Positions 2,107-62,177 of a stretch of 64,000 nucleotides of DNA are shown in pieces. Positions within the stretch are counted from its first letter, which is position 1. Every line of letters begins with the position of its first letter. The position numbers were made by a program, and so were the translations under genes. This DNA is from Bacteroidales bacterium (lineage in GTDB: Bacteria; Bacteroidota; Bacteroidia; Bacteroidales; GWA2-32-17). The notes under the pieces were generated by a model. That model did no database searches. It had not been told where the DNA came from and saw only the letters and a list, made by a program, of their open reading frames with translations. The stretch lies in the NCBI GenBank assembly GCA_026417155.1, contig JAOADU010000056.1, positions 28,229-92,228 of the forward strand, written 5' to 3'.

Positions 2107-4236
2107 ATGAAACCCGATTTTTCAAAAGTAAATATACTTGAAACAAATTTTGTTCAAAAGATACACAAACAAGAAGTTTGGAAAACTTCTGAAGGAATTA
2201 GCGTAAACAACATATTTACAAAAGAAGAGTTAGATAAATTAGAACATTTAGATTATGTAGCAGGTATTCCTCCCTATTTAAGAGGCCCTTATGCTACTAT
2301 GTATGTAATGAAACCATGGACAATTCGTCAGTATGCAGGATTTTCTACTGCCGAAGAATCGAATGCATTTTATCGTCGTAATTTAGCTGCAGGTCAAATG
2401 GGCTTGTCTGTGGCATTTGACTTGGCTACCCATCGTGGATATGATAGCGACCATGAACGTGTTGTTGGAGATGTAGGCAAAGCAGGGGTAGCTATTGATT
2501 CTGTGCTCGATATGAAAATACTATTCGACCAAATACCGCTCAATAAAATGTCGGTATCCATGACGATGAACGGAGCTGTAATACCTATTATGGCTTTCTA
2601 TATTGTTACGGCATTAGAACAAGGAGCTAAACTCGAAGAATTGAGCGGTACCATTCAAAACGATATTCTCAAAGAATTTATGGTTCGCAATACATATATC
2701 TATCCGCCCGAACCTTCCATGCGAATTATTGCCGATATATTCAAATTTACATCTCAATACATGCCTAAGTTTAATAGTATCAGTATTTCGGGTTATCACA
2801 TGCAAGAAGCCGGAGCAACTGCCGATATAGAATTAGCATACACATTAGCCGACGGTTTAGAATATCTTCGTACTGGAATTAAAGCAGGAATGAGTATTGA
2901 CGATTTTGCTCCCCGTCTATCGTTTTTCTGGGCAGTAGGAATGAATCATTTTATGGAAATAGCAAAAATGAGGGCAGCAAGGTTGTTATGGGCAAAGATT
3001 GTTAAACAGTTCAATCCACAAAACCCAAAATCATTAGCTCTTCGCACGCATAGTCAAACATCGGGTTGGAGCTTGACCGAACAAGATCCCTTCAACAATG
3101 TCGCTCGAACATGTATTGAAGCACTTGCGGCGGCACTTGGACATACCCAATCGCTTCATACTAATGCACTCGACGAAGCAATAGCCTTACCTACAGATTT
3201 TTCTGCTCGTATTGCACGTAATACTCAAATATACCTTCAAGAAGAAACGCAAATTTGTCGCACTGTCGATCCATGGGGTGGTTCATATTATGTAGAATAT
3301 CTTACCGACCAATTGGCGCACAAAGCTTGGTCGTTGATTCAGGAAATTGAAGAATTGGGTGGAATGGCAAAAGCTATAGAAACTGGTATTCCGAAAATGC
3401 GAATCGAGGAAGCAGCTGCTCGTAAACAGGCTTTAATTGACACCTGCAAAGAAATTATTGTTGGAGTGAATAAATACAAGTTAGATAAAGAAGAACCCAT
3501 AGAAATACTCGAAGTTGATAATACCGCAGTTAGAGAAGCTCAAATAAAAAGATTGAATGAACTAAAAGCAACCAGAAATAATCAAGCAGTGCAAGAAGCT
3601 TTAGATGCTATAACTAATGCTTGTGCAACAAATTCAGGCAATTTATTAGAACTAGCCATTGAAGCAGCCAAACGCCGCGCTACATTAGGCGAAATATCTT
3701 ATGCAATGGAAAAAGTTTATGGTCGATACAAAGCCAATATACGTATGATATCAGGAGTGTATAGTTCCGAGTCGCACGATAGCGAGCAATTTAAAGAAGC
3801 CCGTCGCTTAACCGATCTTTTCGCAGAAAAAACAGGTCGTCGTCCTCGCATAATGATTGCAAAAATGGGACAAGATGGACATGATAGAGGAGCAAAGGTG
3901 GTAGCTACAGCTTATGCCGATATGGGATTTGATGTAGATATGGGTCCGTTATTTCAAACACCTGCCGAAGCAGCCAAACAAGCTGTAGAAAACGATGTAC
4001 ATGTTTTAGGTGTATCAAGCCTTGCAGCAGGACACAAAACACTTGTTCCTCAAGTGATGGAAGAATTAAAGAAATTAGGAAGAGAAGACATTCTTGTTAT
4101 TGTAGGAGGTGTGATACCACAGCAAGATTATGAGTTTTTATATAAACTAGGTGTAGTTGGAATATTTGGACCTGGTACACCTATTGCCGACGCTGCCATA
4201 AAAATAATGAATATATTAATCGAACAACATGAATAA
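2107..4236 (+). CDS. mutB: Methylmalonyl-CoA mutase large (alpha) subunit, B12-dependent
   Basis: Full-length 709 aa protein. It has the N-terminal TIM-barrel motifs ([20 protein letters not shown]) and a C-terminal cobalamin-binding DxHxxG motif ([12 protein letters not shown]). Confidence 0.95.
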
Positions 4237-4308
4237 ATAAAATACAAAACGAAAATATTTTTACAATTCGAGTAAATTATCTAATTTCGAAACTTTAATC
4301 AAAGGCAC

Positions 4309-6194
4309 ATGGAAACGACTAACATGAATGAACATTCTAATTTGAACGAGAAAGAAATGAACGTAATGTCGGAAACTGAACCCGTATTTCAGGCACAAAT
4401 AGAAGATGAAACATTTGGCGAAGAACCATTAAAAGAGCCTGAAGATATAAGTGACGTAATTATGCAATATACAGTTATTGATTATTCGTCACTTTCGCGC
4501 GAAGAACTTATTGAAAAATTCAAACAATTACTTGGTCAGTCAAATATTACTCAACACAAAGACGATTTTGAGCAAATTAAACTACACTTTTACCGAAAAT
4601 TAAAACAAGAAATCGATCAAAAAAAGAAAAAACAACTTGAAAGTGGCGAAAATGTTGAAATAGATGAAGAACCCGATAAGCTCGAACCAATATTTAAAGA
4701 ATTATACGATGCATATAAAGAAAAACGCAATGAAATAATTGCCGAAATTGAGCGGCAAAAACAAGAAAACTATAAAAAGAAGCTCGAAATTATTGAAAAA
4801 ATTAACGAACTAACTACGCGTCCCGAAGCTCTTAAAACCACAATGGACGAATTTAGAACACTTAACGAACAATGGCGTAATATAGGTGTTGTTCCACAAC
4901 ATCTTGTTAAAGATTTATACAATAAATATAATTTAGCTCGGGATAATTTTTACAATTGGCTAAAATTAAACAAAGAAGCTCGCGATTATGACTTAAAACG
5001 CAATCTCGAAGCTAAATTAGAACTTTGCGAAAAAGCTGAGCAACTTATATTAGAACAAGATGTTGTAAAAGCTATAGGACAATTACAAATATTACACGAA
5101 CGATGGAGAGAAATAGGACCTGTTTATCCCGATAAAAAGGAAGAAATTTGGGAGCGATTTAAAGAAGCTACTCATAAAATTCATAAGAATCATCAGGAGT
5201 TTTTTCAACGTAAAAAAGAAGAAGAAGAAAACAATCTAAAAGCCAAAACAATTCTTTGCGAAATTGCCGAAGAAATTGCATCAAAAACCTACAATCGTTA
5301 CAAAGAATGGGAAGAAGCTACAAAGCAAATGATAGATTTACAGCATCGATGGAAAACCATAGGTATGGTGCCTCGTTCTGAAAATCATGCCATTTATAAG
5401 CGTTTTCGATCGGCACTCGACCAGTTTTTTGCTGCTAAAAAAGAATATTATGAACAAAAAGCTGAAGAAGAAAACCATAATTTACAGCTAAAAACCGATT
5501 TATGTATCAGAGCCGAAGCACTAAAAGATAGTACTAACTGGAAAAAAACAACACAAGAGTTGATACAATTACAACGCGAATGGGAAAAAATAGGTCCTGT
5601 TCCAAGAAAAGATGCCGATGCTTTGTGGAAACGTTTTAGAGCTGCTTGCAACGAGTTTTTTGAAAGAAAAACCAATCATTTTAAATCAATCGAAACACTT
5701 CAGGAAGAAAATTTATCCAAAAAACAAGAAATATTAAATCAACTCGAAAATTTTGAATTTACAGATAATCCAGAAGAGGATCTAAATAAAGTAAAACAAC
5801 TACAAAAACAATGGTTCGAAATAGGCCCAGTTGCTGAGCAGTATCAGGAAGAAGTACAAAAACGCTACAAACAAGTTGTGCAAAAATTATACAATAATTT
5901 GAAAGTTGACGACAAGCGAAAAAACACATTAAGTTTTAAACTTCGCATTGATAGTTTATTACAAACACCCAATTATATTGAAAAATTAAAAATTGAAAGA
6001 AATCAAATTGCACGACAATTGCATAAAATTGAAAATGACTTAAAAGTTTTAGAAAACAATATTGGTTTCTTTTCTAAATCAAAAAATGCTGAAAACTTAT
6101 TAACAGAATTCGCTAAAAAAATTGATGAAGGAAGAAAACAAGCCGAAATTTTAAAAGAGCAAATACAATACATCGATAATATTATAAAACAAAA

Positions 6195-18298: not shown

Positions 18299-19972
18299 TT
18301 AAATCAAAGCAATACGTTGTAATTCGTTTAGGACGTTTTTATATTCTTCGCTTTTATTTTCACAATGGGATAAAGCATTGTCTATAAGTTTTATTTCGTT
18401 TAATATGTATTGAAGCGTTTGATTTTTGCACATATCAATTTGATGTATAATAATTTCTGAAAGATCTGAAATTAAACGTTGAATATTTTTTTCAACTTCA
18501 CGATGAATTTGTTTCTTAAAATGTGAATAAAAGAATTTTTTGAAAATAATTGAGGGGAAAACAAACCATAATAGCTCAATATGTGAGTCAAAAACACGAT
18601 AAACCGACACATCAGGTTGTTTTATGGGAGGGATTCCTGGCGACCATTCTAGTGCTGATAATTTTATACCTAAAATTTTTTCTACATTATCACTAAGGCG
18701 ATTATTTAGATGTTTAGAATATAAAGATAATCGTTGGGCAGATTCCTGTATTATTTTTTCAATTTTTATTTGCTCTTTTTGTTGTATATCTTGGAGCTGA
18801 ATAGTTAGTTCTGTTTTTAGCCAAAACTTAAATTTATTGGTTAGTTGATGCAAATTTCCTTTCCATGAAACAAATTCGATATCAAACTTTTGTTCAATTT
18901 TTGCGATAGTAGGTTTATAATATGATTCAAAAATCTGATTCAATGTATGGCGTACATTTGATTTTAAATCTTTTGATATAATTGTTAGTTCATACGTGAT
19001 GTGAGCTTGAGTAGTATATTCATCTAATATTTTTTGCTTAAGCAACTTTTGTTGTTCCTCATTTTTCAACGAAGCTTGATATGCTAATTCAAAATAGTTT
19101 ATTGTTTTTTGTATGATGTAACGCTGCTTTTGTTTACAAACTGCTTCAATGGTAAAATTGTATTGATGTATGATAGGTGTAATGATTTCATTGATGATTT
19201 GAAGATTAAAATATTCGGTTTTTCTAAATATCGAATAGGGAAAGATAGGAATTTCTTTATTAAAAATGCGAATAAGAGTTTGACTGATAAAATGAAGTAT
19301 ATCATTGATTTGAATCTCGTTGAAATAATCGGTTTTTGTGAGCAAACAAACTACTTTATACGAATATTCGTTTAGTGTTTTTATTAATGAAATATCTTGT
19401 TCAGCTAACGGCCTTTCGGAGCTAATACATACAACGGCAATCATTGTTTCAGGTGTCCAACTTTCAGTTGTGCTGGTATTGTTTTTAAAAATACTTCCTA
19501 TACCAGGAGTATCTATGATTCTGATTTGCTCAAAAGGTTTTAATTGCGGTAAGTAAATTATCGCAAAATTTACGTTTTTTACGTTTTGTGGATTTTTTAG
19601 TTCTGATGTATATTCTTCAAGTTGATTTATGTTGATTTCTTCTATAGAATTATCTAGAAAATGTATATATGCTTTTTCTTTTTCGCCATACTGAATTATT
19701 GTAATTATTGAAGTAGTGGGAATGACGTTAGTTGGTAATATATTTTTTCCAATAAAGCTATTGATGAAAGAGCTTTTACCAGCTTTGAATTGCCCAAAAA
19801 TGCTTATATCAATATATTTGATTGTTAAAAATCGTTGTAGTTGTTGAATATAAGCGTCCCAACCAGTTAGTTGATATTTCTCGGCAATTTTTTTAATATA
19901 CTCAATTGTTTCCACAAATATTTTATGTTTTATCTTCTTCGTATTTGGGCATATACCATCGTTGTGCAACAA
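18299..19972 (-). CDS. Bacterial dynamin-like GTPase
   Basis: G1 motif GQFKAGKSSFINSFIG, G3 motif DTPGIGS and G4 motif TKTD, followed by a long helical C-terminal region with a hydrophobic patch (LLWFVFPSIIF). The ORF-track start at 19972 is a TTG that overlaps the antiporter gene by 50 nt. An in-frame GTG at 19915 lies 8 nt after the antiporter stop. The gene is operonic with either start. Confidence 0.75.
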   Translation of the reverse strand: MLHNDGICPNTKKIKHKIFVETIEYIKKIAEKYQLTGWDAYIQQLQRFLTIKYIDISIFGQFKAGKSSFINSFIGKNILPTNVIPTTSIITIIQYGEKEKAYIHFLDNSIEEININQLEEYTSELKNPQNVKNVNFAIIYLPQLKPFEQIRIIDTPGIGSIFKNNTSTTESWTPETMIAVVCISSERPLAEQDISLIKTLNEYSYKVVCLLTKTDYFNEIQINDILHFISQTLIRIFNKEIPIFPYSIFRKTEYFNLQIINEIITPIIHQYNFTIEAVCKQKQRYIIQKTINYFELAYQASLKNEEQQKLLKQKILDEYTTQAHITYELTIISKDLKSNVRHTLNQIFESYYKPTIAKIEQKFDIEFVSWKGNLHQLTNKFKFWLKTELTIQLQDIQQKEQIKIEKIIQESAQRLSLYSKHLNNRLSDNVEKILGIKLSALEWSPGIPPIKQPDVSVYRVFDSHIELLWFVFPSIIFKKFFYSHFKKQIHREVEKNIQRLISDLSEIIIHQIDMCKNQTLQYILNEIKLIDNALSHCENKSEEYKNVLNELQRIALI

Positions 19973-21056
19973 AAGTAGGAATTACAGCACTGGCAATAAC
20001 TACTCCAACTAATATGGAATATTGTGTTTGATTGATAAAACCCGATTGCAAGCCAAATAGACTAGAGATTGTGCCGAATGTTAAGCCTGTGCTCATTAGT
20101 AGGCTAGTGTACATTCTATTTTCTTTTAAATATTTTGTAACAAAGAGCCAGATACCTAAAAATTTTGACAATATTTTAAGTGCAAATAATATAACAAACA
20201 TTGCAAATGCCGAAATAATTAGTGTTAATGATACTTTCATGCCCCCAACGATAAAAAAAACAGGTGTAATAAAAGCATAGCTTATAGTACGCAGTTTTCG
20301 GCTAATGATAACTGTTTTGCGTTCTTCTTTAAAATGCTTCGACATGAGCATTCCTAAAATAAATGCAGGTAATATGGCATGTTGTTCGCCTAATTTTGCA
20401 AGAAAAATAAATAAAATTAATATAGCGAAAATCAGTTTAATTTCGGGTTCGATGACTTTATTGGACATGGTTTTATTACGTAACAGGAATAAAGAAAAGC
20501 GATATACCAAAATTATTACAATGGTAGAAACTATCAAAAAAATTAGTGTATATTTTGTGGGTTTAATAAATAAAATACTAAGTGCTAAAGCTGTTCCCAT
20601 GTCGGTAATAAAAGTAGATGTCATGATAATTTTTCCTAAGAATGTTTTTGTTAGTCCGGTTTCTACCAATACAGAATAAACAACAGCAAGTGATGTCGTT
20701 GACAAGGCAATTCCTGCAATTAGTGATGCTTTTAGTTCCCAATGAAATATGTAGTATGTAAACAGTAAAACTATAATAAATGGTGTAAAAAATGAGAAAA
20801 AGCCAATGAAAAAGCTAGCTTTAAATTCTGATTTAAAAAGTTTAGCATCAATTTCAGTACCTGCTAAGTAGGTAAGCAAAATTCCTCCAAAATTTGCTAA
20901 ATATATCATCCATTCTTGAGGATGAAATCCAATATTACCCAAAATGGCTCCAAAAGTAATTTCTATGATGGCAACCGATAAACCTAATCGAATAGATATT
21001 AAACTGGAAAGAAAAATAACACCTGCAACAATTAACGGAAGTGCTTGTTCGTGCAT
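19923..21056 (-). CDS. Cation/proton antiporter (CPA2/Kef-like membrane domain, no RCK domain)
   Basis: 377 aa with about 11-12 TM segments. Na_H_Exchanger-type motifs are present (FGAILGNIG, LLTYLAGTEID, ALSTTSLAVVYSVLVETG, ITDMGTA). ATG at 21056. Confidence 0.8.
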   Translation of the reverse strand: MHEQALPLIVAGVIFLSSLISIRLGLSVAIIEITFGAILGNIGFHPQEWMIYLANFGGILLTYLAGTEIDAKLFKSEFKASFFIGFFSFFTPFIIVLLFTYYIFHWELKASLIAGIALSTTSLAVVYSVLVETGLTKTFLGKIIMTSTFITDMGTALALSILFIKPTKYTLIFLIVSTIVIILVYRFSLFLLRNKTMSNKVIEPEIKLIFAILILFIFLAKLGEQHAILPAFILGMLMSKHFKEERKTVIISRKLRTISYAFITPVFFIVGGMKVSLTLIISAFAMFVILFALKILSKFLGIWLFVTKYLKENRMYTSLLMSTGLTFGTISSLFGLQSGFINQTQYSILVGVVIASAVIPTFVAQRWYMPKYEEDKT

Positions 21057-21061
21057 AATTT

Positions 21062-21092
21062 TAACTCCTTTACATTTTGTTTGTAGGAGTTA
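21062..21092 (-). promoter_or_regulatory. Putative SD-sequestering hairpin, the expression platform of the fluoride riboswitch
   Basis: On the minus strand, UAACUCCU (21092-21085) is a perfect 8-nt complement of AGGAGUUA (21069-21062). The second segment contains a GGAG that lies 8 nt upstream of the antiporter AUG. Confidence 0.55.
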
Positions 21093-21130
21093 TCAGCACT
21101 ATTGCGGTTAAAGGTGAACTCCATCACCCG
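21083..21130 (-). promoter_or_regulatory. Fluoride riboswitch aptamer (crcB RNA motif)
   Basis: The minus strand reads CGGGUGAUGGAGUUCACCUUUAACCGCAAUAGUGCUGAUAACUCCUAC. P1 is GGUG/CACC, the pseudoknot is GGAGUU/AACUCC, and the short P3 is GCA/UGC. The conserved GAUGG, AACCGC, CUGAU and CCUAC segments are in the canonical order. Confidence 0.8.
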
Positions 21131-21141
21131 AATCCTTTTTG

Positions 21142-21149
21142 CAAAGGTA
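21142..21149 (-). promoter_or_regulatory. -7 promoter box TACCTTTG driving the riboswitch-antiporter-GTPase transcript
   Basis: The plus strand reads CAAAGGTA, an exact TAnnTTTG on the minus strand. It lies about 12 nt upstream of the first aptamer nucleotide. Confidence 0.5.
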
Positions 21150-21183
21150 ATATTATTTTACTTAGTCACGAAAATTTTTTAAT

Positions 21184-22443
21184 TTATTTAACTTTGAGTA
21201 TGTCGCTCCAACGAGTAGTGTAGCGTGGCGATAGTTTTTGTTGTAATGTTCGCCATTTAAGTGATGGTTCATGCGAAGCTAAATGGATAGAAAAGTCGCC
21301 ATAACGCTTATTGATGTCATCTATAACGTTCATCAAGATATGCTCTTTCTCTTTAAATTCTTCAAATAAACTTAAGTTAATATATTTATTGGGCAGAAGA
21401 TTTGTTAATATAATACCTGCTTTTTTGATAGCTTGACCTTCAGGATATATTTTTTGAAGAGCAAATTTAGCGTATTTCGAAATTTCTATGCTCGAAGCGG
21501 TTTGAATAGGAAGTGTAATATAGCTTTGACGATAAAAAGGAACTTCGTTTTTTTTATGAAAATTAGAATGTATGTATATTAAAATGCTACTACAAAGCGA
21601 TTGTTGTTTGCGGAGCTTTTCTGCAGCTTTTGATGCAAAAGCCGATATACGTTCGTTTAATTCTTGAAGTGTTTTCAATTCTTTTTCGAATGTACGCCCT
21701 ACAGAGATGTTTTTTTTATCAACAACCTCATCGAGTGTTAAACATGAAATGCCTGTTAGTTCTTTTTTTAAACGTAATCCCTGAATTGTCATGTGTTTAT
21801 GTATCCAGGAATCGGGTAATTGAATGAAATCGTATCCTGTGTTGATGTTCATGCGGTATAACTTACGTGAATATTGTCGTCCAATGCCCCAAATATCTTC
21901 TACTTTAATCCATCGTAATGCTTTTAATCTTTTTTCGTCTGTATCTATCAGATATACATGATTAGTTTTATCGGGAAATTTTTTTGCAATGCGGTTAGCA
22001 ATTTTTGCTAATGCTTTTGTTGGAGCTATACCTATACTTACAGGAATTCCGGTCCATTGAAGTATCGTTTCTCTAAGCTCTGAGCAAAATACGTCTAAAG
22101 GAATGTTTGTCTGTTGTTTGTAAAAATCAATAAATACTTCGTCAATGCTATAAATTTCTATATTGGCACAAAAATTTGCTACAGTATTCATGACTCTTCG
22201 ACTAAAATCGCCGTAGAGTGAAAAATTGGCAGAAAAATATTCTACGTTTTCTTTTTCGATAAGCTCTCGATATTCAAAAATAGGGGCACCCATAGGGATT
22301 CCAAGGGCTTTAGCCTCATTGCTGCGAGAAATAACACAACCATCGTTATTAGAAAGCACAATAACAGGCTTACTATTCAAATCGGGACGAAATACGCGTT
22401 CGCACGATACATAAAAATTATTGCAGTCTAACAAGGCAAACAT
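21184..22443 (-). CDS. umuC: Y-family translesion DNA polymerase, UmuC-like
   Basis: The N-terminus [22 protein letters not shown] is typical of UmuC, and the length is 419 aa. It lies 2 nt downstream of umuD. Confidence 0.9.
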
Positions 22444-22445
22444 GG

Positions 22446-22892
22446 CTAAACAGCCTTAATGATGTGAGTTACAATACCCCAAATGATAAAATTATTGTCG
22501 GAAGTAATTTTTATAGGTTTAAAATTGCTGTTTGCTGGCATTAAATAACATTCGTTATTTTTTATATGTAGTCGTTTAACAGTAAATTCGCCATCAACAA
22601 AGCATACAGCAATTTTGCCATCAGAAGGTTTAATGCTTCTGTCTATGATAAGTATATCACCATGGTCAATATTGGCGTCTTGCATCGAATTGCCTACAAC
22701 ACGTGCAAAAAAAGTTGCAGATGGATTTTTTATGAGTGCTTTATTTAGGTCAAGAGGTACTTCGATAAAATCATCAGCAGGCGAGGGGAAACCTGCTTTA
22801 ATGGTTTCAATCAGAGGAATTTCTATATGCGAAGAGGTATCAGGACTATAAAAAGTTAGTGTATTGAGATTTGTAATTTTTCGTGCTTTCAT
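22446..22892 (-). CDS. umuD: UmuD-like S24 self-cleaving peptidase
   Basis: Ala-Gly cleavage site (IKAGFPSP), Ser nucleophile in VGNSMQD, and Lys in FTVKRL. Confidence 0.85.
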
Positions 22893-24967: not shown

Positions 24968-27505
24968 TTAAAAATTATCAATAAATGGGCGTTTCCGAGC
25001 CAATTTAAGATCTTGTAAAACGGACGATTTTACATTGATTTGAAAGCTATAACTCCGATAGGTTCCGAATGGTATCCACGAAAGCCGCATTTCCCAGCAG
25101 TGTAAGTCACGATAAATATTAAGAGATGTATAAGTAAATTTTTTATTTTCGAAATCATAACCCGAAGAATAAGATATTTTCCATTTGGGAGTTAAACTTA
25201 TATCGCCCGAAAAAGTTAGGCCTTGTATGGTTTTATATTCAAATTGTTTTTTTTGCTGATTAAAATAGCTAGTGCTACTTAGATTGTATGAAATATAAAT
25301 AGTCCATGGAACTTTAAAATCAACATAATATTGCATGTAATTATCGGGCAAACCAGCTGCAACGGCTGCTTGTCGTGCCGCTTCAGTTGTTTGTGTTGCT
25401 GGGTTTTTAACAAATCCATCTGAGTTTAATGAAATACTTGACGACAGGCTTGCCGATGTGAGGTTTGCAAATTTTTTATTCGTATTATATTGAAGTTGAT
25501 TAATAAAACGCCCTAATGTGTCATATGTATATATGTTGTAGTTAGCACTGGCATATAAGTTTAGTACTTTAAATAACGTTGTACGTGCTTGAAATAACAC
25601 AGGTTGCCATCGTAACGAATCGAGAGCTATATTGTATGCCGTGCTCATTGAAAATTGTTCGAGTAAAGGTATTTTTTTTATGGTTTGTATGGTGTCTGAT
25701 TTTGATTTATACTTCATTTCTAAATTATTGTTGATTGAAAAGTTAATAGTTCCATATTTTCCGATAGGTGGAGAGCCAAATATTCCGTTCTGAACAATGG
25801 AATATGATTGAGTTTTACCACTTTCATTGATTTGGACAGATTTATAATATTTAGTTTTAAGGTAATCTGGTCTGTATGCAAAGCTAATACTTGGCGTAAT
25901 CATGTGTCTCAAACCTTGAAATCTCCAGTTAGTATTTTTGGGCATATAAAAGCCATAAATTTGAGTAGTAAATGGCATCGAAAAACTCCAATCACTGGCT
26001 CGTGTAAATTTGTAAATGGTATCGGTTTGTAAATAGCCTGGTATCGTATCGTTGTTAATTATTTGTGTTGGGATCCATGTTTTACGTAATTGGTTCGGAT
26101 ACCATCGTTCGGTATATGTAATAGAAGGATTTAAGTTAAAGTAACGAAAAACTTTAAAATTAGCCATTACAGGTATGCTGTGGCGTACTCCGTTTCGCAT
26201 TTGATGAATTGTTTGAGATGTAAATAACTTATTTTCCTTACTAGTAATGCTATTTTGTAAATTTGAGTTGTATGAAATTCCAATTTTTTTGAAAATAGTT
26301 TGCCTCGACATACTAAAATAAATATCGGGCAAGCCTATAGTAATGGTACTATCAGTAAAATTTTGATTGTGACGAATATTGGCAGATAAATTAAATGGCG
26401 AATTAGGCCATTGTTGTCGAAAAGAAATGCTCGATTGCATATCACTTCGTAAACGATTTTCGTAGCTAACCATGTTAAATCGGTTATAAATTTGTGAGCC
26501 GACGTTTACATTTGCTGAAAAATTTCTAAAAGGGTGTGCCTTTGCGTCTTGATTATGATACCAACGGATGTAATATGCTTTGTTATTTTGGTAATTAGGA
26601 AGTCCTCTTTCGCTGATAATGATATTGCTGTATGAAATATTAAGATTTCCTTGATATTTGTATCGTTTTTTGTAATTCGAAATTCCGGTTATACCCCAAG
26701 AACCTTTTGTATAGGCTTCGCCCAATATTGATAAATCCATATAATCGTTAATGGCAAAATAATATCCTCCATTTTTAAGAAAAAATCCACGCACTTCTTC
26801 TTCACCATACTCTGGAATTATAATTCCTGATTTGCCCTTTTTTTTGTTAGGAAAAAAACCAAAAGGAATACCTAACGGAACAGGTATATCTTCGACAACT
26901 AAATAGGCAGGTCCTGATACTATTTTATCATCAGGAATAACTTTTGCTTTGGTTAGAGTGATATAAAAATGCGGGTGTTCAAGGTTACAAGTAGTGTAAC
27001 GCCCTTGTGTAAGACAAATATGATCGTTTTCGAGTTTTTTTGTTCTTGAAGCATGCAAATACCCCCCACTTTGTTCGGTTGTTACTTCTGTTATAATACC
27101 TCTTTTTGTATTAAAATTGTACCGTATAGACGCAGCTTGAAATTCATCGGCACCATCGGCAAATTCAGGTTTTTCTGTTAGATTTCCTAATGAATCTTTT
27201 TTCCCAGTAGCATACGCTTCATTATTATTTAAGTCTATTTCTATATAATATGCTTTGAGATCTTTATCCTGGTATTTTAATGTTGACTGATTATACAAAA
27301 ATGCTTTTTGTGATACTAAATCTAATACAATGGAGTCGGAACATGAGTATATAACGGGAGCTTCTAAATTAAATGAAGAAGAATTTTTTTTTAAAGTATC
27401 GGTTGAAACTTTTATGGAATCTTTTTGCTGCGAGTATAAAAAATTGTAAACACAGCAACTAATTGTGATAACAATAATTCGTATGAAAGTGTTATTTTTG
27501 TACAA
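24968..27505 (-). CDS. Large outer-membrane protein, LptD/OstA-like (tentative)
   Basis: 845 aa with a signal peptide, an N-terminal OstA-like region and a long Tyr/Asn/Ser-rich beta-strand region. It is divergent from an amidase gene, an arrangement I recall for LptD-like genes in Bacteroidota. Apparent TTG start. Confidence 0.5.
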   Translation of the reverse strand: MYKNNTFIRIIVITISCCVYNFLYSQQKDSIKVSTDTLKKNSSSFNLEAPVIYSCSDSIVLDLVSQKAFLYNQSTLKYQDKDLKAYYIEIDLNNNEAYATGKKDSLGNLTEKPEFADGADEFQAASIRYNFNTKRGIITEVTTEQSGGYLHASRTKKLENDHICLTQGRYTTCNLEHPHFYITLTKAKVIPDDKIVSGPAYLVVEDIPVPLGIPFGFFPNKKKGKSGIIIPEYGEEEVRGFFLKNGGYYFAINDYMDLSILGEAYTKGSWGITGISNYKKRYKYQGNLNISYSNIIISERGLPNYQNNKAYYIRWYHNQDAKAHPFRNFSANVNVGSQIYNRFNMVSYENRLRSDMQSSISFRQQWPNSPFNLSANIRHNQNFTDSTITIGLPDIYFSMSRQTIFKKIGISYNSNLQNSITSKENKLFTSQTIHQMRNGVRHSIPVMANFKVFRYFNLNPSITYTERWYPNQLRKTWIPTQIINNDTIPGYLQTDTIYKFTRASDWSFSMPFTTQIYGFYMPKNTNWRFQGLRHMITPSISFAYRPDYLKTKYYKSVQINESGKTQSYSIVQNGIFGSPPIGKYGTINFSINNNLEMKYKSKSDTIQTIKKIPLLEQFSMSTAYNIALDSLRWQPVLFQARTTLFKVLNLYASANYNIYTYDTLGRFINQLQYNTNKKFANLTSASLSSSISLNSDGFVKNPATQTTEAARQAAVAAGLPDNYMQYYVDFKVPWTIYISYNLSSTSYFNQQKKQFEYKTIQGLTFSGDISLTPKWKISYSSGYDFENKKFTYTSLNIYRDLHCWEMRLSWIPFGTYRSYSFQINVKSSVLQDLKLARKRPFIDNF
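27493..27500 (+). promoter_or_regulatory. -7 promoter box TATTTTTG for the amidase-mlaD unit
   Basis: Exact TAnnTTTG 39 nt upstream of the ATG at 27540. It lies inside the first codons of the divergent LptD-like gene. Confidence 0.4.
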
Positions 27506-61500: not shown

Positions 61501-62007
61501 GTCGCTAATTTTTCCCGAAAGTTGTAAATTTAATGTTGACGATACCGACATATTTTGATTATTTCCAATACGAATGCCGCGAGTAATGCTACCACGTTTT
61601 TGAAGCTCATTATCGAAATAAGAAAAATTATTTTCGTTCGAATAACTCAAAGAATTATTAAGGTTGCTTATGGATGTTGAGTCTTTAATAATTAAAGAAG
61701 CAGGTTTATGATAGTATTTTGTTGGTAAAATCTTATTTAACGGAACATATTGAATGATTAGAGTATCATTATAAATTTTTTTTAAAATTACTGTCGAACG
61801 AGTGTAATTGACAAAAAATAAGGAATCGTGAATGATTTCATTTTTCGTATTTCGAATGCTAAACCATAATGGGCTTATAGCAACGCTATCTATTGTAATA
61901 AAGGTGTCGGTCTGAAATACTTTTTTTTCTGTGGGAATAATTAAATTTTGGGCAAAGAGACTTTTCGATAAAAATATTACAAATATGAGAAATCGTATTT
62001 TACTCAA
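58579..62007 (-). CDS. Very large (1142 aa) predicted outer-membrane beta-barrel protein, family unknown
   Basis: Signal peptide (FVIFLSKSLFAQ), pervasive alternating aromatic/polar beta-strand pattern, and a C-terminal aromatic residue (VRAWF). Apparent TTG start. Confidence 0.5.
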   Translation of the reverse strand: MSKIRFLIFVIFLSKSLFAQNLIIPTEKKVFQTDTFITIDSVAISPLWFSIRNTKNEIIHDSLFFVNYTRSTVILKKIYNDTLIIQYVPLNKILPTKYYHKPASLIIKDSTSISNLNNSLSYSNENNFSYFDNELQKRGSITRGIRIGNNQNMSVSSTLNLQLSGKISDDYEIVAALTDNQVPFQPSGNTQQIQEFDKIYIQIFNPNNSFTIGDYELHANEHRFLRINRKLQGLQYEYRKKNNSNAILFRTSQSVSKGKYHRMTFNGREGIQGPYKLVGANQEPFIVVLAGTERIYIDGKLLLRGENNDYIIDYNTAELTFTAKNVITKDTRIVAEFEYSDRNYARFMTFNQLNIEEEKVNFKLQLYHEFDAKNQTLQQSLTDKEKEILRLSGIDESKAVVPFITLDSIRNENQIYYRLIDTIVNGVTYDSVLVYSTDTTARYRAGFAYVGKNKGNYIQVASTANGRVFRWVAPVNGIPQGEFEPIKKLIPPMKHTIMATSLNYRIHRKVSTTIDFSISDYDKNTFSKFDQHLNKGIALRTALKHQLNKDTSKYQLNYETYLQHISSTYNSPENIKHVEFSRDWNNNLYNSNNEIMTGIVLNFKRKEAVLSSVGADWLSFERYYKGRKIFAQAHIKPNTWNFLHHGSFLQTQQNQIKTTFLRHYSTNEKSLALFKTGVKTQLEENHWRLINNDSLLYNSFSYFRWDAYLSSPDSSKFFWNIRYGIRDDFLPLHNKLHKTFSTNEAAIEINTSKTKKLSISSIITYRKLKGYRDSIKSSENIVSRNELLVKLAKNAITLNTVHENNASMEPKRQFMYVEVPAGQGTYTWIDYNKNGIKELNEFEIAQYADQATFIRITSSTLEYIKAYYSKLSQTISLNPEACWYNNSGIRKFLTNFSNHTSFLHEVKTFSKNIIYQFLPFAPNDSNLLLINTLLRNSFNILKNSSSIGMQYLFLHQQNTQLLIQGTDKRWNEQHSLVFRWNINEWYSLQIVPMYSTRRFHSEFFTQKNYKIYTQQIESNTSYQPNNETRWTLTGKLTSKINKLNTEQLMAYNFSLEMRKSIKSDNYIVAKAELIRNNFRGHTATSVAYEMLEALQPGWNQIYTLQVQRNLSSTVQMVISYQARASQLAKTIHTGNIEVRAWF

Positions 62008-62018
62008 TTATTTTTTCT

Positions 62019-62026
62019 CAAAATTA
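62019..62026 (-). promoter_or_regulatory. -7 promoter box TAATTTTG for the large OMP gene
   Basis: The plus strand reads CAAAATTA, 11 nt upstream of the TTG start at 62007. Confidence 0.35.
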
Positions 62027-62177
62027 CTAAGCTTCGTTAATAAACGAAAGAGATAAGAAAATATTATTTAATATAAGATTATATGCTATTTGTAATCGAA
62101 AAGATATGTTTTATAAAGTAAAATGAAACCATTGATAAATCAGTGAAAAAATACACTATTTTTACAAAAAATATACT

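Follow-up and report, generated by a model that had tools for sequence, protein, structure and literature searches.

At the level of translation initiation, a fluoride-responsive ON riboswitch probably controls a Na+/H+ antiporter gene and, probably as well, the dynamin-like GTPase gene found 7 nt downstream, in the window analysed here (the whole stretch of 64,000 nucleotides of Bacteroidales DNA). This reading is based on a full-length fluoride aptamer upstream of the antiporter gene, whose 3' pseudoknot strand is complementary to two mutually exclusive partners, one in the aptamer and the other in the initiation region of the gene, on the lack of a terminator between aptamer and gene, and on the recurrence of this arrangement in homologous loci.

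Fluoride aptamer and putative promoter

The sequence-only reading had placed a fluoride riboswitch between umuC and the antiporter gene, and had proposed a covariance-model search as a check. Carried out on the whole window, this search gave a match to RF01734 of 57.0 bits, far above the gathering score of 34 (E = 3.7e-13), which spans model positions 1-64 of 64 and is the sole Rfam match in the 64 kb; the sequence quoted in that reading was accurate. The elements of the region, all in the minus strand, are:

21142-21149, minus strand: TACCTTTG, putative -7 promoter box, matching the Bacteroidota TAnnTTTG (motif match)
21077-21137, minus strand: fluoride riboswitch aptamer, crcB motif, RF01734 (Rfam covariance model, full length)
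21113-21128, minus strand: P1 hairpin, GGUG (21128-21125) paired with CACC (21116-21113) (Rfam structure line and sequence)
21122-21117, minus strand: pseudoknot 5' strand GGAGUU, inside the P1 loop (sequence)
21096-21105, minus strand: P3 hairpin, GCA (21105-21103) paired with UGC (21098-21096), loop AUAG (Rfam alignment)
21091-21086, minus strand: pseudoknot 3' strand AACUCC (sequence)

The Rfam alignment shows the blocks GAUGG, AACCGC, CUGAU and ACUCCUAC in order, and the pseudoknot GGAGUU/AACUCC is a perfect helix of 6 bp (read from the sequence; the RF01734 model does not score the pseudoknot). Alignment and sequence therefore agree with P1, pseudoknot, P3 and conserved blocks as they were first described. 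The single departure from the conserved blocks is GAU-A-ACUCC in place of GAU-G-ACUCC, a variant shared by 34 of the 75 compact platforms considered below. By its covariance-model score and these elements, the aptamer is a genuine member of the fluoride riboswitch class.

The -7 box TACCTTTG, which was also proposed in the sequence-only reading, remains putative. It matches the consensus, forward-orientation copies of TAnnTTTG are enriched in the upstream intergenic DNA (11 versus 4.5 expected), and the Bacteroidales MAG L001, with which the window is fully syntenic (flanking proteins 52-86% identical), carries TATTTTTG at the same relative position. Across the window as a whole, however, the motif shows no enrichment (107 found versus 111 expected), and since only its upstream placement is supportive, the promoter assignment is tentative. 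TAnnTTTG usually ends 11-27 nt before the ATG; the copy of the antiporter gene ends 85 nt before it, which leaves room for a leader, and transcription would start around 21137-21133.

Antiporter gene and its neighbours

The two genes that would be controlled by the riboswitch are:

19923-21056, minus strand: Na+/H+ exchanger family protein (CPA-type antiporter), 377 aa (PF00999)
18299-19915, minus strand: dynamin-family GTPase (Dynamin_N E = 5e-23; start taken from the L001 alignment)

The antiporter matches profile positions 4-372 of 375 of PF00999 with 134.2 bits (gathering score 26.2, E = 7e-39). Like the NapA/CPA2-type antiporters (4bwz, 5bz2, 5bz3), it belongs to the Na_H_Exchanger fold family, resembling them along its whole length, and NapA 4bwz is the closest solved structure. 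The relation is nevertheless distant (E = 1e-10), and the match to NCBIfam TIGR00932 (CPA2) reaches 108 bits, below the cut-off of 238.3; therefore, the protein is filed only as a NapA-related member of the Na_H_Exchanger family and not as a defined CPA2 member. In contrast to NapA, it is part of a tight clade in which control by a riboswitch is almost universal: its homologues, 51-83% identical across phyla, nearly all have a fluoride aptamer upstream.

The GTPase gene begins with a GTG located 7 nt past the antiporter stop codon, the same arrangement is found in L001, and both genes are probably co-transcribed. No CrcB was found in a Pfam scan of 10 small genes of the window. Two long intergenic gaps, 26741-27482 and 61552-62177, were rejected as artefacts of ATG-only start calling.

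Switching strand and predicted folds

The 3' pseudoknot strand of the aptamer is part of a longer strand with a second partner near the start codon, on its upstream side. The features involved are:

21085-21092, minus strand: switching strand UAACUCCU, which contains the pseudoknot 3' strand AACUCC and is complementary to GGAGUU (21122-21117) and to AGGAGUUA
21062-21069, minus strand: anti-aptamer strand AGGAGUUA, Shine-Dalgarno-like (SD-like), perfect complement of UAACUCCU
21068-21065, minus strand: GGAG within AGGAGUUA, followed by an 8-nt spacer and the AUG
21054-21056, minus strand: antiporter start codon AUG, no other in-frame start precedes the conserved N-terminus (alignments to homologues begin at residue 1)
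21051-21099, minus strand: predicted ligand-free (OFF) helix (minimum-energy and partition-function folds)

The coordinates confirm the 8-nt perfect complement UAACUCCU/AGGAGUUA, with a GGAG 8 nt before the start, that had been read from the sequence. The end of the aptamer is 20 nt from the AUG. About 1.2 occurrences of the 8-mer AGGAGTTA are expected in 128 kb (both strands), and the chance of finding it on the correct strand inside the 20-nt gap is roughly 1e-4. Pairing of the aptamer 3' strand with the initiation region scores -12.6 kcal/mol, versus an average of -4.8 for shuffled initiation regions, none of which (0 of 100) matches it. As to the earlier suggestion that an SD duplicating the aptamer loop looks designed, the resemblance to an SD is forced, because any competitor of the invariant ACUCC strand has to read GGAGU, and is no proof of SD function. 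The GGAG is most simply explained by complementarity to the invariant aptamer strand.

In the minimum-energy fold, the OFF helix is formed by the pairs GUGC/GCAC, UGA/UUA, UAACUCCU/AGGAGUUA and ACA/UGU, so that 21099-21082 is predicted to pair with 21074-21051 in an interrupted helix of about 18 bp which covers the GGAG together with codon 2 and, in the AUG, the A and the G. The alternation of the 3' pseudoknot strand between the aptamer loop and the GGAG region, as first proposed, is thus supported, with the GGAG pairing as the predicted ground state. When both pseudoknot strands are withheld from folding, the mean unpaired probability of positions -15 to +6 rises from 0.36 to 0.74; that of the start codon alone shifts little in the same comparison, from 0.48 to 0.57. 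A further point against the switch is that folding with the pseudoknot strands withheld costs 12.4 kcal/mol in stability relative to the OFF fold; the pseudoknot and the ligand must offset this difference, or the decision must be kinetic, within the roughly 16 nt between the strands.

From this arrangement we infer fluoride binding, an ON direction and action at the translation level. The leader would begin at about 21135 and the aptamer would form first. With Mg2+ and fluoride bound, AACUCC (21091-21086) would be locked in the pseudoknot with GGAGUU (21122-21117), and the A-rich initiation region AGGAGUUAAAAUUAUG would be single-stranded and accessible to the 30S subunit. Without fluoride, 21099-21082 would pair with 21074-21051, and this interrupted helix of about 18 bp would hide the GGAG and all but one base of the start codon, which would block initiation. 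A platform that overlaps the conserved 3' region implies gene-ON logic (PMC2864571).

Homologous antiporter loci

Upstream DNA is retained in 77 GTDB-genome loci, and in 73 of them an RF01734 match lies directly upstream of the homologous antiporter gene; the aptamer-bearing loci come from many bacterial phyla and from archaea. Judged by this distribution, aptamer and antiporter form a standard, widespread cassette. In roughly three quarters of the loci, the aptamer ends at most 41 nt from the start and (A)GGAG is located 5-10 nt before it. For 75 distinct compact platforms, the mean energy of the real pairings is -11.8 kcal/mol, in comparison with -6.8 kcal/mol for shuffled initiation regions (p = 1.4e-12, phylogeny uncorrected) and -11.2 kcal/mol for swapped aptamer strands (p = 0.002, phylogeny uncorrected). 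By these predicted energies, the alternative pairing design recurs in dozens of homologous loci. Where AUGCC replaces ACUCC as pseudoknot strand, GGCAU is found beside the start (L017, L104, L106 and L109). At the single variable position, GAU-R-ACUCC and GGAGU-Y covary only weakly, with many mismatches besides A-U, G-C and G-U, and covariation there is not claimed. The metagenome scan found no relative closer than 71%, which puts fine-scale covariation within the host's own clade out of reach.

No conserved downstream partner gene was found across 159 loci, and each clade has its own neighbour, such as, in the Gammaproteobacteria-type loci, proteins of about 450 aa that form a 17-member cluster.

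Possible Shine-Dalgarno use and the nature of the proposed gate

Among the 48 long reading frames of the window, the antiporter gene is the only one with AGGAG or GGAGG before its candidate start, which bears out the earlier remark that a strong SD is exceptional here; any SD-like 4-mer was found in 2 of the 48 genes (background 5.5%). This SD poverty, together with synteny to one labelled MAG (L001), is the basis on which the analysis judged the phylum of the host. Among genes that flank Bacteroidota loci, 1 of 21 shows an SD-like motif, versus about 50% for Smithella/delta-proteobacterial and for Chloroflexi loci. The ribosomes of Bacteroidia are reportedly blind to SD sequences (PMC7797042, PMC13000453); they keep the anti-SD sequestered, and local structure, along with an A at -3 and at -6, tunes initiation (PMC7797042, PMC13000453, PMC6847099). 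The antiporter leader has A at both positions. In view of this blindness, "freeing the SD" may really mean unfolding the initiation region. We see about an even chance that, in this SD-poor Bacteroidales-type host, the GGAG mainly complements the aptamer strand, and that the gate consists in folding and unfolding of the initiation region rather than in SD/anti-SD recognition.

A canonical SD gate of the kind first proposed, in which fluoride frees the GGAG and recognition by the host 30S anti-SD drives expression, seems unlikely, although several observations agree with it. A GGAG located 8 nt from the AUG has optimal SD spacing, and a spacing of 5-10 nt is kept in nearly all compact platforms, SD-poor low-GC loci included; most of the SD-poor, low-GC loci show GGAG (or GGGG) at a canonical 4-9 nt. 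Furthermore, ribosomes without bS21 functionally read the one natural strong SD of Flavobacterium johnsoniae, that of rpsU (PMC13000453). However, the genome segment of the host is essentially SD-free, and Bacteroidia ribosomes do not recognise SD sequences in vitro (PMC7797042). The natural variants also count against this gate: in L001, the closest relative, just 2 nt separate GGAG and AUG, and the helix takes in the AU of the start codon, while the GGAG is missing from the metagenomic variants L108 and L121, with UAUUAGCC directly before the AUG pairing with the aptamer GGCUAAUA. Finally, the base after GGAG is U, matching the aptamer strand, in 8 of the 9 Bacteroidota and Ignavibacteria loci, versus 9 of 33 elsewhere, where G, matching the anti-SD, is common (Fisher p = 0.0014, phylogeny uncorrected). 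This preference for GGAGU fits the aptamer strand rather than the anti-SD, although anti-SD (CCUCC) and aptamer strand (CUCCU) are so nearly alike that sequence alone cannot separate both roles. The broader proposal that the "SD-sequestering" platforms of Bacteroidota work purely by unfolding of the initiation region, without SD/anti-SD contact, has in our judgement about an even chance.

Less probable alternatives: transcript-level control or an acquired relic

Control might instead be exerted mainly on the transcript: the ligand-free helix would trigger RNase cleavage or termination, either Rho-dependent or at an atypical terminator, and effects on translation would be secondary. This is improbable. 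Work by Bastet in 2017, a reference of PMC12667848, is said to show frequent coupling between Rho termination and riboswitches of the translational type, which counts for this explanation, and clear hairpin-plus-U-run terminators control the antiporter homologues of Chloroflexi, Planctomycetota, Omnitrophota and some Gammaproteobacteria. In the window, however, the terminator scan showed no terminator-like site between aptamer and ATG (21057-21076), the OFF helix is followed by AAAAUUAUG, without a U-run, the gap between aptamer and ATG is just 20 nt, and the helix directly overlaps the initiation region.

The least probable explanation is a horizontally acquired relic, with aptamer and platform intact in sequence and no useful regulation in the host: the 57-71% identity of the antiporter between unrelated phyla and archaea, implying that the cassette has often been transferred, and an SD-like motif foreign to the style of the host would fit it, but aptamer and platform are kept in the syntenic L001, where flanking proteins have diverged to 52-86% identity and the cassette has thus been retained through substantial divergence, the GC content of the antiporter gene and the A-rich leader (A at -3 and -6) fit the host, and the aptamer score is as high as in other lineages.

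Comparison with known systems

Translational fluoride riboswitches are known in Burkholderia pseudomallei and Pseudomonas syringae (PMC12667848; PMC8814607). The proposed switch shares with B. pseudomallei and with P. syringae eriC-F the aptamer class, the ON direction and the lack of a terminator. By the descriptions in PMC12667848 and PMC8814607, it would also resemble them in a predicted sequestering hairpin formed by the 3' part of the aptamer over the ribosome-binding region. It differs in its SD-poor Bacteroidales-type host, in its very compact platform (20 nt from aptamer end to AUG), and in its gene, which encodes a Na+/H+ antiporter and not CLC-F or CrcB; Na+/H+ antiporters are the second most common gene class associated with fluoride riboswitches (PMC11139923).

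Bacillus cereus crcB has the same aptamer, a 3' pseudoknot strand shared with a competing helix, and ligand-dependent activation (PMC2864571, PMC11077080). Its competitor is an intrinsic terminator, whereas that of the window is a predicted helix over the initiation region without a U-run; the antiporter homologues in Chloroflexi and Planctomycetota use the terminator version, as B. cereus crcB does.

F. johnsoniae rpsU is the nearest parallel for the GGAG, as a rare strong SD-like motif in an SD-ignoring lineage (PMC13000453), comparable to the antiporter gene, alone among 48. The SD of rpsU is an autoregulatory sensor of bS21 occupancy, while the motif of the window is explained by complementarity to a riboswitch strand. 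In a host whose ribosomes normally conceal their anti-SD behind bS21, the freed GGAG might, by analogy with rpsU, be read selectively by a bS21-free ribosome subpopulation, the one by which rpsU is translated in Flavobacterium, and antiporter output would then integrate fluoride with ribosome composition. We consider this very improbable; if true, the riboswitch would conditionally expose the only strong SD of the neighbourhood to bS21-free ribosomes.

Biological meaning

The pairing of a fluoride aptamer with a Na+/H+ antiporter is already well known, and this locus is unusual only in that a ribosome-binding motif of the classic kind occurs among bacteria whose ribosomes usually disregard it. 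The literature cited here gives no sign of a characterisation of the riboswitch-controlled antiporter clade; the near-obligate riboswitch control of so conserved a clade points to a dedicated role in fluoride tolerance. For annotation, the antiporter, and probably the GTPase behind it, are placed in the fluoride response of the organism, which is useful but routine. Beyond this, the same aptamer-plus-GGAG cassette is shared by bacteria that use SD sequences, by archaea and by Bacteroidales that are blind to them. This makes it a test case provided by nature, in which the window and L001 (spacing of 2 nt), together with L108 and L121, which lack the GGAG, could show whether "SD-sequestering" riboswitches need SD/anti-SD pairing.

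Fluoride aptamer in the antiporter leader

An Rfam scan of the whole window gave a single match, to the fluoride riboswitch family (crcB motif, RF01734); it scores 57.0 bits where the gathering score is 34, with E = 3.7e-13, and covers model positions 1-64 of 64. Rescanning the local region with permissive filters left the outcome unchanged. This confirms the fluoride riboswitch called in the sequence-only reading, whose quoted minus-strand sequence for 21149-21054 matches the window. P1 (GGUG/CACC) and P3 (GCA/UGC) are supported by the Rfam alignment, every conserved block was found, and the pseudoknot GGAGUU/AACUCC was taken straight from the sequence. The locus contains the following features:

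21184-22892, minus: umuD-like and umuC genes, ending 47 nt upstream of the aptamer
21057-21183, minus: umuC-to-antiporter intergenic region with the riboswitch leader
21149-21142, minus: TACCTTTG, a TAnnTTTG-type box
21137-21077, minus: fluoride aptamer RF01734 (Rfam match)
21092-21085, minus: aptamer 3' strand UAACUCCU
21069-21062, minus: Shine-Dalgarno (SD)-like strand AGGAGUUA
21068-21065, minus: GGAG, followed by an 8-nt spacer
21056-21054, minus: AUG of the antiporter gene
19923-21056, minus: Na_H_Exchanger protein of 377 aa (PF00999, E = 7e-39)
18299-19915, minus: dynamin-family GTPase, GTG start at 19915, beginning 7 nt past the antiporter stop codon

The proposed 8-nt complement of the aptamer 3' strand in the GGAG region is present (UAACUCCU versus AGGAGUUA). 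About 1.2 copies of the 8-mer AGGAGTTA are expected across the two strands of the window, so its place in the 20-nt gap and on the correct strand is not chance. Pairing of the aptamer 3' strand with the initiation region has a predicted energy of -12.6 kcal/mol; shuffled versions give -4.8 kcal/mol, and none of 100 was as strong. No terminator-like site was found by scanning from the aptamer to the ATG or from umuC to the aptamer. The proposed interpretation, a fluoride riboswitch that would act by sequestering the SD region, is supported, with a caveat on SD function.

The TAnnTTTG box shows no overall enrichment in the window; it is enriched in upstream intergenic regions in forward orientation, usually 11-27 nt before the ATG. 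That of the antiporter lies 85 nt upstream, the length required for aptamer and expression platform.

Predicted folding of the leader

P1 is retained in the minimum-energy fold, yet 21099-21082 pairs with 21074-21051. This predicted ligand-free helix (OFF helix) joins the UAACUCCU/AGGAGUUA and ACA/UGU pairings to UGA/UUA, which covers the A of the AUG, and GUGC/GCAC, which covers its G and codon 2. To mimic the ligand-bound pseudoknot, both of its strands were barred from folding; the mean probability of being unpaired at -15 to +6 then rose from 0.36 to 0.74, the biggest gain among 28 leaders. The end value was exceeded at one homologous locus only, L068 (0.79). Barring costs 12.4 kcal/mol of fold energy, which pseudoknot and ligand would have to pay back for the open state. 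The leader has A at -3 and -6, which are positive initiation determinants in Flavobacterium (PMC6847099). A minimal start-stop ORF (AUG UAA, 21070-21075, minus) occupies the OFF-helix loop and 3' shoulder just 5' of the GGAG; the Bacteroidales relative L001 and other loci do not share it, and it is probably due to chance.

Fluoride aptamers at homologous antiporter loci

Antiporter homologues (51-83% identity) were drawn from 80 species genomes of Bacteroidota, Ignavibacteria, Desulfobacterota-type lineages, Fibrobacterota, Chloroflexi, Planctomycetota, Gammaproteobacteria and methanogenic/methanotrophic archaea. Upstream DNA is available for 77 of the genome loci, and in 73 of these Rfam detects a fluoride aptamer immediately 5' of the antiporter gene; L013, L019 and L051 have upstream DNA without an aptamer at the gathering score. 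The antiporter scores under the NCBIfam CPA2 cut-off and its closest solved structure is NapA. Members of its clade from unrelated bacterial phyla and from archaea (Methanoperedens, Methanobacterium) share 57-71% identity, and antiporter and aptamer together have the appearance of a horizontally mobile cassette dedicated to the fluoride response.

At about three quarters of the aptamer-bearing loci, the distance from aptamer end to start codon is 11-41 nt. These compact platforms carry (A)GGAG 5-10 nt before the start, complementary to CUCC(U). L001 and L003 have 9-10 nt of unbroken complementarity, compared with 8 nt in the window, 12 nt in several delta-proteobacterial loci and 5 nt in archaea. 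Addition of 80 metagenomic loci gave 75 distinct compact platforms, whose mean pairing energy of -11.8 kcal/mol compares with -6.8 for shuffled initiation regions (p = 1.4e-12, kinship ignored) and -11.2 for aptamer strands swapped between loci (p = 0.002, kinship ignored). Single-position covariation between aptamer strand and platform is weak. The pseudoknot variant GGCAU/AUGCC replaces GGAGU/ACUCC in L017, L025, L027, L029, L031, L042, L073, L103-L109 and others (Gammaproteobacteria-type); in L017, L104, L106 and L109 the start-adjacent sequence shifts to match, GGAGGCAU (GGCAU).

A terminator platform, in which the 3' pseudoknot strand is built into a hairpin with a U-run behind it, takes the place of the compact one in Chloroflexi (L022, L041, L054, L058, L060), Planctomycetota (L028, L043, L056), Omnitrophota (L048) and some Gammaproteobacteria; in the first three, the start codon is 55-120 nt beyond the U-run. 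Tandem fluoride aptamers about 170-235 nt apart precede the antiporter in one Fibrobacterota and one Latescibacterota locus (L070, 2654-2718 and 2890-2963; L072, 1511-1572 and 1745-1805), and second aptamers farther upstream in L008 (140-209) and L061 (1030-1094) probably serve other genes. In the fetched loci Rfam also found three RNAs unrelated to the riboswitch studied here: a c-di-AMP riboswitch (L016, 723-863, 87.6 bits), a cobalamin riboswitch (L076, 563-800, 63.1 bits) and a DUF3800-X RNA (L018, 1200-1271, minus, 41.6 bits).

Role of the GGAG motif

The scarcity of strong SDs assumed for this host was borne out in the window itself, where an SD-like 4-mer precedes two of the 48 predicted genes (background 5.5%) and AGGAG precedes the antiporter only, even when any possible start within the first 100 codons is admitted. 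Predicted anti-SD pairing is -8.3 kcal/mol for the antiporter and -5.6 or weaker for all other window genes. An SD-like motif was found in one of 21 flanking genes at Bacteroidota loci, and in about 50% at Smithella/delta-proteobacterial and Chloroflexi loci. Bacteroidia ribosomes hide the anti-SD and do not recognise SDs in vitro, with rpsU as the known exception (PMC7797042, PMC13000453).

The GGAG had been judged to look designed. Its resemblance to the aptamer loop is real, but is accounted for by complementarity and does not imply SD function: the aptamer strand ACUCCU is almost identical to the anti-SD CCUCCU, so any competitor for the aptamer strand necessarily resembles an SD. We lean, at roughly even confidence, towards gating that would be purely structural, without SD recognition. 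In L001 just 2 nt separate the motif from the start (GAGGAGUUAUG), and the AU of the AUG is part of the helix. Two compact platforms from metagenomic loci, L108 (about 31 nt ahead of the start at 82) and L121 (ahead of its start at 2501), contain no GGAG; they have ...(G)UAUUAGCC or UUAUUAGCC right before the AUG, which can pair with the aptamer's GGCUAAUA(A/C) (P3 3' strand plus CUAAU), and would be natural SD-less forms of the sequestering helix. Furthermore, the base 3' of GGAG is U, matching the aptamer strand, in 8/9 Bacteroidota and Ignavibacteria loci versus 9/33 elsewhere, where G, the anti-SD match, is common (p = 0.0014, kinship ignored). Against structure-only gating, a spacing of 4-9 nt is maintained even in most SD-poor loci, and the change of GGAG to GGGG (L006, L082, L089, L090) keeps wobble with aptamer strand and anti-SD alike.

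Genomic context

The window (32% GC) is syntenic throughout with L001, contig CALGPK010000077 of an "uncultured Bacteroidales" MAG, with the common order gyrB, umuD, umuC, aptamer, antiporter, GTPase, 155-aa ORF and glycosyltransferase. Full-length protein matches are 52-86% identical; GyrB is 97% identical over its last 32 residues only, the rest being outside the locus. The GTPase follows the antiporter so closely that both are likely co-transcribed under fluoride control, and the arrangement is the same in L001 (GTPase at 3084-4691). An Ignavibacteriaceae and a Sumerlaeota locus (L037, 3780-4433; L063, 5641-6213) carry more distant GTPase homologues, 2-3 kb past the antiporter. We know of no described tie between bacterial dynamins and fluoride.

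Upstream of the aptamer are umuC, the S24 umuD-like gene and gyrB. Since no terminator is predicted after umuD-like/umuC, transcription of this SOS operon may possibly run into the riboswitch leader. The crcB motif was first noticed beside DNA-repair genes such as mutS; it was presented as an element that turns genes on, with terminators overlapping its 3' region (PMC2864571). Control by fluoride riboswitches is through terminators or presumably translational (PMC8814607), and forms that act on translation through sequestering hairpins are known (PMC12667848). Behind exporters, Na+/H+ antiporters rank second in frequency among associated gene classes (PMC11139923, citing Baker 2012). As aptamer, gene association and platform type are each known, the window locus adds one more instance, and its Bacteroidales setting is the sole feature likely to interest specialists.
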